From: Thermoplasmatota archaeon
GTDB lineage: Archaea; Thermoplasmatota; JAQUQK01
Direction of reading: 5' to 3'
Length of the DNA stretch: 47,060 bases
Assembly (NCBI GenBank): GCA_028716125.1
Contig: JAQUQK010000001.1
Coordinates: 1-47,060, forward strand
Made by a program: the position numbers and the translations under genes. Position 1 is the first letter of the stretch. Each line of letters starts with the position of its first letter. The notes beneath the pieces were generated by a model. The model ran no database searches. It was given only the letters and a program-made list of their open reading frames with translations, and was not told where the DNA came from. Shown here piece by piece: positions 17,338 to 19,656 of the stretch.

Positions 17338-19656
17338 TTACTCCTTCAAATCGAGCGCAGCAATTCCAGGCAGGAATTTGCCCTCGAACATTTCAAGGGC
17401 AGCGCCTCCGCCTGTGGAAACGTGGGAAACTTTGTCGTCGAATCCCATCTGTCTTATGGCCGCAGCCGAGTCGCCGCCGCCTACGATGGTAAGCGCGCCC
17501 TTTGCAGTTGCATCCGCGAACGCCTTTGCGATTGCCTTGGTGCCCTCGTCGAATCCCTTGATTTCAAAGACGCCCATCGGCCCGTTCCAGAACGCGGTCT
17601 TTGCGCCAGCGATCTTCTGCGCATACAACTCGCGGGTCTTGGGTCCGATATCAACGCCCATCCAGCCCTGCTCAAGCTTTTCGACGACTTTTGTCTTTGC
17701 GCCAGCTTCTACTTTGTCCGCAATGACGTGGTCTATCGGGAGGACAATCTTCTTGCCCTTCGCCTTTGCAAGGTCGAGGATTTCGATTGCCATCTTCAGT
17801 ACGGGCTTCTCATTGCCCTTCTTGTCGACTACGACTGTTTCGTACTTTGATGAGCCGACTTCCATTCCCGCCGCCTTCATGAATGTGTATGCCATCGCTC
17901 CGCCGACAACTACTTCGTCGACGAGGCTAAGCAGGTTCTTTATGACGAATATCTTGTCGCTGACCTTCGCGCCGCCGAGCACTGCGACAAACGGCCTTCC
18001 CGGGTTCTTGAGCGCCTTGTTTATGACCTCAACTTCCTTCTTGACGAGATATCCTGCAACTCCGCCTTTCAGGATGTTTGGAACTCCGGTCATTGATGCC
18101 GCGTCCCTGTGAGACGTTCCGAATGCGTCGTTGATGTAAATGTCCGCCATTGATGCAAGCTCTGCCGCGAACTTTGCGCTGTTTGATGCCTCGCCCGGAT
18201 AGAATCTGAGGTTTTCCAGAAGCGCGACTTCTCCGTCTTTCATTGCCGCAACTGCTTTCTTCGTCTCTTCGCCGATGCAGTCCGGGAGGAACTTTACGGG
18301 CTTGCCGAGAAGCTTTGATAATCTTTCTGCTGCCGGCTTGAGCGAGAATTCCGCCTCATATCCCTTTTCCGCAGGCCTTCCAAGGTGCGATGCGAGTATG
18401 ACTTTTGCGCCAGCGTCCATTGCCTTCTTTATCGTGGGTATTGCGGACTGGATGCGGAAGTCATCGGTGATTTTTCCAGCTTCCATCGGCACGTTGAAGT
18501 CAACTCTTATGAAGACTTTCTTGCCTTTCATCTTCGCGTCGTCGATAGTCTTGAGAACTATGCTGTCGCCCTTGCTTACGCCGGCCTTTGCCATGTGGGC
18601 CGCGAGGTCAACGATTCTGCAGGAATAGCCCCATTCGTTGTCGTACCATGTGACGATTTTGAAGAAGCGCTTCTCGCCCTTCAGGTTGTTTTCAAGCGTC
18701 GCCTTCGAGTCGTATATTGAGGAGCGCTCGTCGTGTATGAAATCCGTCGAGACCAATTCTTCAGTCGTGACGCCGAGGATTCCCTTGAGATATGTCTCGG
18801 ACGCCTTTTTCAGAAGCGCATCTATTTCCTCAATTGAAGTGTCTTTTACGGTCCTGATTGTCAGGTCGACTACTGAAACGTCCGGTGTCGGAACTCTGAA
18901 CGACATTCCGGTGAGCTTTCCCTTGACTGCAGGAATTACTTCGCCTACTGCCTTTGCCGCACCGGTGGTCGAGGGTATCAGGTTGATTGCCGCAGCCCTT
19001 CCTCCGCGCCAGTCCTTCTTGCTTGGACCATCAACAGTCTTCTGCGTCGCGGTGTAAGAGTGGATTGTGGTCATGAGGCCGGTTTCGATTCCAAGACCTT
19101 CCTTCATGATTACGTGGACTATTGGAGCAAGTCCGTTTGTCGTGCATGATGCGTTTGAAACTATGTGGTGCTTGCGCGCGTCGTATTCCTCGTGGTTTAC
19201 GCCCATGACGATTGTCTTAATGTCAACGCCCTTGCCCGGCGCGGATATGATGACTTTCTTCGCACCTGCCGCGAGGTGGCCTCTTGCGAGGTCCGATTCA
19301 GTGTATAATCCGGTTGATTCGATGACTATGTCAACGTTCATCGCTTTCCATGGCAGGAGCGAAAGATCTTTTGCCGCAGGCAGGCATTTTATCTTGCTGC
19401 CGTTGACGACAATAACGTCGTTCTCCTTAAGATCGGGCTTGCTCTTCTCGGTCGTTACCTGACCCTTGAACCTGCCGTGAACTGAGTCATACCTTAGCTG
19501 GTATGCGAAATAGTCGGCGTCGGTGGAAACGTCGACTACCGCAACCACATTCAAATCTTTGCCGAGAACCCCTTTCTCGACCATGGCGCTTAAAACCTGT
19601 CTTCCAATTCTTCCAAACCCATTGATGGCTACGTTTACCATAACTATCAAACCCAT
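17338..19656 (-). CDS. gap-pgk: bifunctional fusion: class I (bacterial-type) glyceraldehyde-3-phosphate dehydrogenase plus phosphoglycerate kinase
   Basis: 772-aa uninterrupted ORF. Residues 1 to about 358 are GapA-like ([26 protein letters not shown]). A short linker (GVSKGDSI, about nt 18555-18585) follows. The remainder is a full PGK ([27 protein letters not shown]). The likely start is ATG 19641 ([14 protein letters not shown]). Confidence 0.9.

Follow-up and report, generated by a model that had tools for sequence, protein, structure and literature searches.

A bacterial-type GAPDH-PGK fusion gene in a Thermoplasmatota archaeon, probably acquired in pre-fused form

The first 47,060 nucleotides of contig JAQUQK010000001.1, assigned to a Thermoplasmatota archaeon (assembly GCA_028716125.1) and referred to here as the window, through which alone the host genome is known here, carry on the minus strand (17338..19656) a gene in which a glyceraldehyde-3-phosphate dehydrogenase (GAPDH) is joined in frame to a phosphoglycerate kinase (PGK). 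This gene probably encodes a bifunctional GAPDH-PGK that was fused in bacteria, moved long ago into a Thermoplasmatota lineage, was recoded there, lies behind an archaeal-looking promoter and has stayed under purifying selection. The novelty lies in the archaeal host and in the evidence that an already fused gene crossed between domains of life.

The fused gap-pgk gene was recognized in the list of open reading frames (ORFs), by Pfam and by NCBIfam; its longest ORF comprises 772 codons and a TAA stop codon at 17338-17340, with 0 internal stops. The N-termini of the 34 closest fused homologues have the form M-x-x-[VI]-AINGFGRIG and align to a second ATG at 19639..19641 on the minus strand, from which the deduced N-terminus matches several of them identically. 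Hence, translation probably starts at position 19641, and the fused protein is probably 767 and not 772 amino acids long. The first-pass annotation had described a single 772-codon ORF specifying a complete type I GAPDH with the motif SNASCTTN and a complete PGK; at the level of the deduced protein, the ORF was confirmed by the domain and family models and the motifs to consist of a complete type I GAPDH, a linker of nine residues and a complete PGK.

The GAPDH moiety covers residues 6-357 (18586..19641, minus strand), as delimited by the alignment with the structure 1k3t and by TIGR01534, and falls into a subfamily resembling the glycosomal GAPDHs. Pfam located the domains Gp_dh_N at residues 7-120 (E 7e-29) and Gp_dh_C at residues 176-338 (E 4e-62), and the type I GAPDH model TIGR01534 was matched over positions 1-330 of 330 with 428.2 bits against a cutoff of 367.2. 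The model NF003251 of the archaeal type II GAPDH yielded 24.9 bits against a cutoff of 185, in agreement with the previous view that both halves are of bacterial or eukaryal type and not of the archaeal class II. The E4PD models likewise remained below their cutoffs (284 versus 539 and 275 versus 530 bits), as did G3PDH_Arsen, the model of the ArsJ-associated GAPDH (331 versus 450 bits). The catalytic motif SNASCTTN (residues 167-174; 19135..19158, minus strand) contains the nucleophile Cys171 in ORF numbering, and the motif TIHSYTATQ with the catalytic His is located at residues 197-205 (19042..19068, minus strand). In an alignment of 61 fused proteins, S165, C166, T167, T168, N169 and H194 (numbering of the 767-amino-acid protein) are invariant, as are the motifs NGFGRIGR (12-19), WRGGRAA (216-222) and STTGAAKA (229-236); the catalytic Cys, His and Arg of GAPDH are invariant or nearly so. 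According to general knowledge of GAPDHs, the Asp that closes strand beta-2 (VVAVVD, residue 42) suggests a preference for NAD.

The GAPDH half could be aligned end to end with the glycosomal GAPDH of Trypanosoma cruzi (1k3t; 548 bits, 69% identity, TM-score 0.93 relative to the target), compared with 393 bits for the next GAPDH class among the solved structures and 57% identity for the closest other solved bacterial GAPDH. The kinetoplastid glycosomal enzymes are 66-69% identical to it and the Symbiodinium GAPDHs 67-68%, while the nearest stand-alone GAPDHs (74-78%) come from metagenome-assembled genomes (MAGs) labelled Phycisphaerales, Spirochaetes, Bacteroidota, Melioribacteraceae and Negativicutes. 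In the GAPDH tree, dinoflagellate GAPDHs are found near the fused clade. As an observation in its own right, the prokaryotic fused clade thus adjoins the long-discussed 'bacterial-like' GAPDH lineage of euglenozoans and dinoflagellates.

The PGK moiety occupies residues 367-772 (17341..18558, minus strand) and is of bacterial type according to PF00162, the structure 1vpe and its sequence motifs. PF00162 was matched by residues 371-760 over profile positions 1-379 of 379 with 512.7 bits (E 7.5e-154). Among the PGK motifs, RVDFNVP, SHLGRP, ENLRF and DAFGTSHR belong to the N-domain and STGGGA to the C-domain. The set of motifs that bind substrate and nucleotide is complete and is kept in the family alignment, in which the PGK positions occupied by Arg, His, Lys, Asn and Glu and the GGGDS motif are invariant or nearly so among the 61 fused proteins. 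The best solved relative is the PGK of Thermotoga maritima (1vpe; 453 bits, 55% identity, Foldseek TM-score 0.93), and among the homologue matches no clearly stand-alone PGK with more than about 55% identity was seen. Two 'PGK-only' matches (P0073 and P0078) with 73-75% identity are extended at the N-terminus by 22-28 residues and could represent truncated fusions. The bifunctional PGK/TIM model PRK13962 reached 530.9 bits against a cutoff of 883 and was covered only at positions 3-391 of 645, and no TIM domain was found in the fused protein by Pfam. Judged by these scores, the protein is neither a PGK-TIM, a type II GAPDH, an E4PD nor an ArsJ-type GAPDH.

Since GAPDH ends at K357 and PGK begins at about V367-T370 in the alignments with solved structures, the linker was assigned to residues 358-366 (AGVSKGDSI; 18559..18585, minus strand), also on the basis of the comparison with related fusions and of an AlphaFold model. 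This refines the former estimate of about eight residues near 18555-18585 to nine. The DNA of the junction contains no homopolymer run. The AlphaFold model of the fusion has a pLDDT of 89.8 and a pTM of 0.79, and the linker, with a pLDDT of 84-90, is modelled as ordered. The sole stretch of low confidence is the S-loop, which in GAPDH is normally ordered by contacts within the tetramer. No chain in the PDB spans both halves, the best query-normalised TM-score being 0.49. The internal M376 was considered as a separate start of PGK and rejected, as this position is mostly occupied by Leu in the closest fused relatives.

These features bear on the possibility that the protein is something other than a straightforward bifunctional enzyme of glycolysis, because one half is dead or has been repurposed for a regulatory or moonlighting role, or because its GAPDH acts on erythrose-4-phosphate or in an arsenate-related reaction. 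GAPDH paralogues with other roles do exist, the E4PD and ArsJ-associated models gave sub-threshold matches, and one bacterial carrier of the fusion keeps a separate pgk gene. Nevertheless, such a role appears unlikely, as all of the specific models remained below their cutoffs while the generic type I GAPDH model exceeded its own, the catalytic and substrate motifs of both enzymes are conserved throughout the family, the ratio of non-synonymous to synonymous divergence (dN/dS) is 0.04-0.11 over the full length, and the GAPDH half shares 69% identity with the bona fide glycolytic enzyme of T. cruzi.

The origin of the fused gene was deduced from its closest relatives. About 35 homologue clusters (P0001-P0034, designated clade A) from JGI, ENA, NCBI and Logan assemblies comprise proteins of 763-771 amino acids that contain all three Pfam domains and share 73-84% of their residues with the window protein across 99% of its length. 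Clade A shares with the window protein the domain order, the length and nearly the same linker, the agreement extending to every family characteristic that can be read from sequence. The length of the linker is nearly constant (0-2 residues variation) and its pattern ..GV[DS]-KGD-x-[IL].. includes a recurrent [KR]GD; the linker of the window protein (AGVS-KGD-SI) is as long as those of most members, and a few members have linkers two residues shorter.

Nine clade A homologues have readable neighbourhoods, and the genomic context is bacterial in all nine. The adjacent genes encode LigA and Pol X in the case of P0017, which is located on a 4.9-Mb contig, SecA, EF-Ts, RRF, UMP kinase and Dxr (P0006), OmpR/HisKA and PEGA proteins (P0002), EF-G and SecG (P0001), TonB and a sigma-54 activator (P0003), Pth and YchF (P0007), a Ser/Thr kinase and an HXXSHH protein (P0030), and PilZ and NnrS (P0010). 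The neighbours of P0004 (PEMT/ICMT, NAGPA and esterases) look bacterial, though without a decisive marker. The SecA protein encoded beside P0006 is 75-79% identical to SecA proteins of MAGs labelled Myxococcota or Deltaproteobacteria, and P0031 bears the database label Polyangiaceae, so that at least one of the clade A carriers is Myxococcota-like by these sequence comparisons.

Separate neighbour-joining trees of the GAPDH half and the PGK half each placed the window protein inside clade A. In a bootstrap analysis of the full-length proteins (neighbour-joining, 100 replicates), clade A together with the window protein was monophyletic in 100 of 100 replicates and the window protein was basal in none of them (0/100); a group of P0001, P0007 and P0008 was its sister in 69 of 100. 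Since bacteria carry the same fusion with a linker of nearly the same length and the window protein nests inside clade A, the gene, as far as its relatives tell, entered the archaeon already fused, and the fusion did not arise in the host lineage.

The first-pass annotation had proposed that a gap-pgk operon was imported and subsequently fused by loss of a stop codon. The import is upheld by the archaeal nature of the host, whereas fusion within the host lineage is contradicted by the pre-fused bacterial clade and by the nested position of the window protein. In bacteria, gap and pgk as a rule form unfused pairs only a few bases apart, so that a fusion is easily reached once the gap stop codon is lost, which has evidently occurred on several occasions. 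In the present case, however, this course of events is very unlikely, because the same fusion with a linker of near-constant length and similar sequence occurs in about 35 clusters at 73-84% identity, with bacterial surroundings in 9/9 examined, and the window protein is nested within them and never basal.

That the gene was imported follows from the host being archaeal, and the DNA of the window is, by its gene content, archaeal and of Thermoplasmatota affiliation. Archaeal markers flank the fused gene on both sides, a tRNA-Tyr gene 1.7 kb to the left and a FEN1 gene 2.5 kb to the right. The tRNA-Tyr(GTA) gene (15507..15611, minus strand; Rfam match at 15508-15611 with 50.9 bits) contains a 31-nt intron at the canonical position 37/38 and specifies a C1-G72 acceptor pair, which is the archaeal/eukaryal identity pair of tRNA-Tyr; it is missed by ARAGORN in default mode and found with the intron option (aragorn -i) or by Rfam. 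The FEN1 flap endonuclease (22203..23216, minus strand) contains the XPG_N and XPG_I domains, and its best named relatives, with about 60% identity, are labelled 'Thermoplasmata/Thermoplasmatota archaeon'. As only five closer relatives of FEN1 were found (78-88%), all on contigs shorter than 5 kb, the host represents, on this evidence, a thinly sampled lineage of the Thermoplasmatota. Further genes of the window that speak for an archaeal host encode HMG-CoA reductase, a split POR of the four-subunit type, RtcA and a tRNA methyltransferase of the GCD14 type.

The fused gene itself is typical for the window: its GC content is 52.6%, rising to 63% at third codon positions (GC3), and its codon usage correlates with that of the other window genes at 0.89. 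Six bacterial homologue genes, in contrast, show GC3 values of 73-99% and 57-68% GC in loci of 56-71% GC; in other words, the clade A carriers are bacteria in all nine cases examined, mostly with high-GC loci, whereas the window copy resides in an archaeal genome and uses host-like codons. In comparison with seven bacterial homologues, synonymous divergence (dS) amounts to 1.6-3.2 and is saturated, and dN/dS is 0.04-0.11. The bacterial fusion loci contain no counterparts of the other window genes except a distant POR/PFOR, and this lack of synteny indicates that no neighbouring genes were co-transferred; moreover, no direct or inverted repeats that might represent an insertion scar flank the fused gene. 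The host-like codon usage, the saturated dS, the low dN/dS, the absence of shared neighbours and of flanking repeats, and an archaeal-looking promoter and terminator together point to an old transfer of a single, pre-fused gene that is now domesticated and under purifying selection.

The putative promoter is a TATA-box-like sequence, TTAAATTAAAATA (19669..19681, minus strand), which was recognized by eye 12 nt upstream of the first ATG, its centre lying about 34 nt upstream of the second. It is a candidate archaeal promoter with a spacing appropriate for a transcript that would start just before the second ATG. Similar A/T-rich elements recur in front of neighbouring genes (repeat family D6), and a promoter scan detected no sigma-70-like site upstream of the fused gene, which fits an archaeal host. 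Directly 3' of the stop codon, the T-rich tract AATCCTTTTATTATTTTTCTTTTCTTT (17305..17337, minus strand) represents a candidate archaeal oligo-T terminator, and an inverted repeat (17234-17257 / 17280-17303; I2) is located just past this tract.

The same data were considered with respect to an artefact, namely a junction created by faulty sequencing or assembly, a chimeric archaeal-bacterial contig, or simply a bacterial contig. The sequence is derived from a metagenome, and the public protein collection lacks the exact protein; yet an artefact is hardly credible, considering that the junction contains no homopolymer, that the length and content of the linker match those in dozens of independent assemblies, that archaeal markers are situated within 1.7 kb and 2.5 kb of the fused gene, and that its GC content, GC3 and codon usage are typical for the window and differ from those of the sampled bacterial homologues, without flanking repeats. 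An origin of the fused gene in Thermoplasmatota archaea with subsequent passage to bacteria, for which the poor sampling of the host lineage could be put forward, as archaeal carriers might be missed when only five FEN1 relatives exceed 78% identity, is most improbable in view of the bacterial type of both halves, the nine bacterial contexts out of nine, the nested and non-basal position of the window protein, and the sister groups of its GAPDH, which are bacterial-labelled stand-alone GAPDHs and further bacterial-looking fused groups.

Several points weigh against a bacterial fusion that was transferred long ago and now serves the archaeon as a bifunctional, possibly channelling enzyme. The taxonomy of the donor is drawn from one SecA search and one database label, and the trees are neighbour-joining trees on Kimura distances. 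The junction is known from the assembled sequence alone, and the exact fused protein, searched with three candidate starts, is absent from a public collection of 15 billion proteins. As five neighbours on the same 48,327-bp NCBI contig (16232-17179, 19796-20476, 22203-23216, 23301-24254 and 25371-26558) are present as proteins in NCBI nr, the deposited record may treat the fused gene differently, for example without a coding sequence or with a pseudogene flag. In the bacterial locus L086 (10887-12898; JGI Ga0208958_1000888), a stand-alone pgk-tpiA pair is located about 0.6 kb downstream of the fusion on the opposite strand; because this carrier keeps a separate pgk-tpiA, the fusion may be an auxiliary isoenzyme and not a replacement. 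Finally, a simulation of the free enzymes saw no direct channelling (PMC11804712).

Of the best 120 database clusters as a whole, well over half combine GAPDH and PGK domains. Among representatives at 50% identity, about five fused proteins appear in the top 150, swamped by thousands of stand-alone enzymes, and no full-length fused member of clade A is included. According to these searches, the GAPDH-PGK architecture has originated independently several times and in either domain order, although fused proteins remain a minority. The groups B1 (P0039/45/46) and B2 (P0040-50) possess GAPDHs that are 71-78% identical to that of the window, while their PGK halves are unrelated to it (47-53% identity, apart in the tree). 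A further group with 44-49% identity has a different linker (..PPKKMGNKK..) with an apparent relic of the PGK start Met and includes the Archamoebae Mastigamoeba balamuthi, Mastigella eilhardi and Rhizomastix libera. Proteins with the reverse order, PGK-GAPDH, exist as well, one of them from the dinoflagellate Biecheleria cincta. The same domain order as in the window protein was thus found to be recurrent in bacteria and Archamoebae, and the reverse order in a dinoflagellate.

Multi-copy architectures were noticed in the course of these searches, some of which may be artefacts of gene models. P0365 (ENA, 2089 amino acids) consists of four GAPDH units and one PGK, and other entries contain two to four tandem PGK domains or, in dinoflagellates (Symbiodinium), a tandem GAPDH-GAPDH; the entries concerned are P0365, P0370 (1918 amino acids), P0371, P0074, P0097, P0120, P0037, P0047 and P0051 (Symbiodinium).

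Scans of genome and metagenome contigs with the fused protein made use of generic back-translated patterns, such as that of WYDNEWGY. The at least 160 loci listed from these scans are nearly all unfused gap-pgk operons, or single genes, and no close fused relative is among them. A single tblastn high-scoring segment pair spans gap and pgk in 57 of 87 loci, and in most of another 80, each with 1-7 stop codons; at the locus L054, 7 nt separate the gap and pgk matches. In the full-text literature, no description of a natural GAPDH-PGK fusion was found, the hits being restricted to operons, metabolon work and TPI-GAPDH fusions. The reservation attached to the first-pass annotation, that such an architecture might turn out to be common and already characterised, was therefore justified with regard to its recurrence but not with regard to its characterisation, as neither a paper nor a solved structure was found. 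Within the literature searched, the clade A family appears to be unnamed and uncharacterised.

A comparison with known systems delimits the fusion further. The kinetoplastid glycosomal GAPDHs (T. cruzi 1k3t, Leishmania mexicana 1a7k/1gyp and Trypanosoma brucei 2x0n) share with the GAPDH half the length of the subfamily, about 355 amino acids, and 66-69% identity, but they are stand-alone, eukaryotic and targeted to the glycosome, whereas the C-terminus of the GAPDH in the window runs into PGK. The PGK-TIM of Thermotoga (PRK13962) is likewise a natural fusion of neighbouring glycolytic enzymes and its PGK is 55% identical, yet partner and order differ, since the PGK of the window protein is C-terminal to GAPDH and no TIM is present. 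The mitochondrial TPI-GAPDH of stramenopiles is another natural fusion of consecutive enzymes and has been interpreted as co-localising successive reactions (PMC3527533); it differs in that GAPDH is C-terminal and the protein is eukaryotic with a mitochondrial presequence, and the respective study makes no mention of a GAPDH-PGK fusion (PMC3527533). The GAPDH-PGK proteins of Archamoebae consist of the same enzymes in the same order as the window protein, but their identity of 44-49%, their ..PPKKMGNKK.. linker and their placement elsewhere in both half-trees mark them as independent events. The bacterial gap-pgk(-tpiA) operon has the same genes in the same order, often a few bases apart, and is the likely ancestral state; it differs by a stop codon and usually a change of frame between the genes, so that two polypeptides are made.

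The fusion would accordingly have arisen in bacteria, where gap and pgk commonly adjoin in one operon, and would have spread as a single gene. 1,3-Bisphosphoglycerate (1,3-BPG) is a labile and reactive intermediate common to GAPDH and PGK. From its deduced sequence, a single polypeptide is expected to provide both activities: in the first step, glyceraldehyde 3-phosphate (G3P), NAD+ and Pi would be converted to 1,3-BPG, which in the second would react with ADP to 3-phosphoglycerate (3-PG) and ATP, both steps being reversible and amounting to G3P + NAD+ + Pi + ADP <-> 3-PG + NADH + ATP. The predicted role is the ATP-conserving step of the lower Embden-Meyerhof glycolysis and, in reverse, of gluconeogenesis. 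The quaternary structure may be a tetramer of the GAPDH type carrying four PGK arms, and the benefit would lie in a 1:1 stoichiometry and proximity, possibly in channelling, for the labile 1,3-BPG. The tether connects the C-terminal helix of GAPDH via the linker, modelled as ordered, to the N-domain of PGK; 1,3-BPG binds in this domain, which also forms the contact surface for GAPDH in simulations of the cytoplasm (PMC11804712). Because GAPDH is tethered to this domain, the proximity of both active partners is guaranteed, and channelling of 1,3-BPG by the fusion is plausible. Given that GH92, GH97 and further glycosidases are encoded in the window together with a PfkB-family kinase and a POR, the fused gene plausibly supplies the archaeon with an ATP-conserving step of lower glycolysis.

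Other genes of the window were recorded alongside the fused gene. The region 4897-12473 on the minus strand encodes bacterial-looking glycan degraders, namely GH97, GH92 of the alpha-mannosidase family, an MGH1/GDE-like glycosidase and an amidohydrolase, and the gene of the PfkB-family kinase is located at 23301-24254; these genes suggest a saccharolytic lifestyle and, possibly, further horizontal acquisitions. Upstream of the fused gene, three tandem genes on the plus strand (19796-20476, 20563-21201 and about 21288-22160) encode secreted proteins with a lipobox (..AGC[IV]GG..), the first two being paralogues with 50% identity and no Pfam match and the third containing a PKD domain. Each of them is preceded by a 23-nt A/T-rich element, ATTTTTATAAGGCCATAAAATAC (at 19759, 20524 and 21244), which is probably a duplicated archaeal promoter. 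Tandem genes of M14 zinc carboxypeptidases are present at 13014-14108 and 14127-15215 (minus strand), the second product having an N-terminal signal of the lipobox type (LAGC). In a 902-amino-acid protein (32489-35197, minus strand), the ABC-transporter ATPase domain at residues 600-743 comes after a long N-terminal stretch of about 590 residues in which Ig-like Big_7/Big_13 domains are found, an arrangement that is unusual among ABC ATPases; an ABC-2 permease gene (31760-32488) follows. A 784-amino-acid protein (41527-43881, minus strand) contains a C25 (gingipain-like) peptidase domain and is otherwise unannotated, and a 663-amino-acid protein (27572-29563, plus strand) matches nothing but, weakly, a Lon_C protease domain close to the N-terminus.

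With regard to its broader meaning, the window provides a clean case in which two consecutive steps of central metabolism, already assembled into one module, crossed from one domain of life to another and were then fully recoded to host codon usage. The chemistry is that of textbooks and many fused sequences are already contained in databases unremarked, so that the finding is useful and not surprising. The repeated invention of the fusion, in bacteria, in Archamoebae and in reversed order in dinoflagellates, together with purifying selection, indicates that selection favours the proximity of the two steps. Direct handover of 1,3-BPG between GAPDH and PGK has been in dispute for decades, and work on the question with the free enzymes continues (for example PMC11804712, PMC4192631). 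Against this background, a more far-reaching idea may be entertained tentatively, although it is more doubtful than probable: that clade A represents a naturally evolved channelling machine, in which the tethered PGK N-domains of the tetramer capture 1,3-BPG, that the window contains its first archaeal example, and that acquisition of the gene gave the host an ATP-conserving glycolysis. If true, hydrolysis of 1,3-BPG and non-enzymatic acylation of proteins would be prevented, the unfavourable GAPDH reaction would be pulled forward, and an ATP-conserving lower glycolysis would replace the usual non-phosphorylating archaeal route in a sugar-degrading member of the Thermoplasmatota. The fused proteins offer simple material for kinetic and cryo-EM tests, and, were the idea correct, clade A would constitute a natural test system for the decades-old dispute over channelling between GAPDH and PGK.

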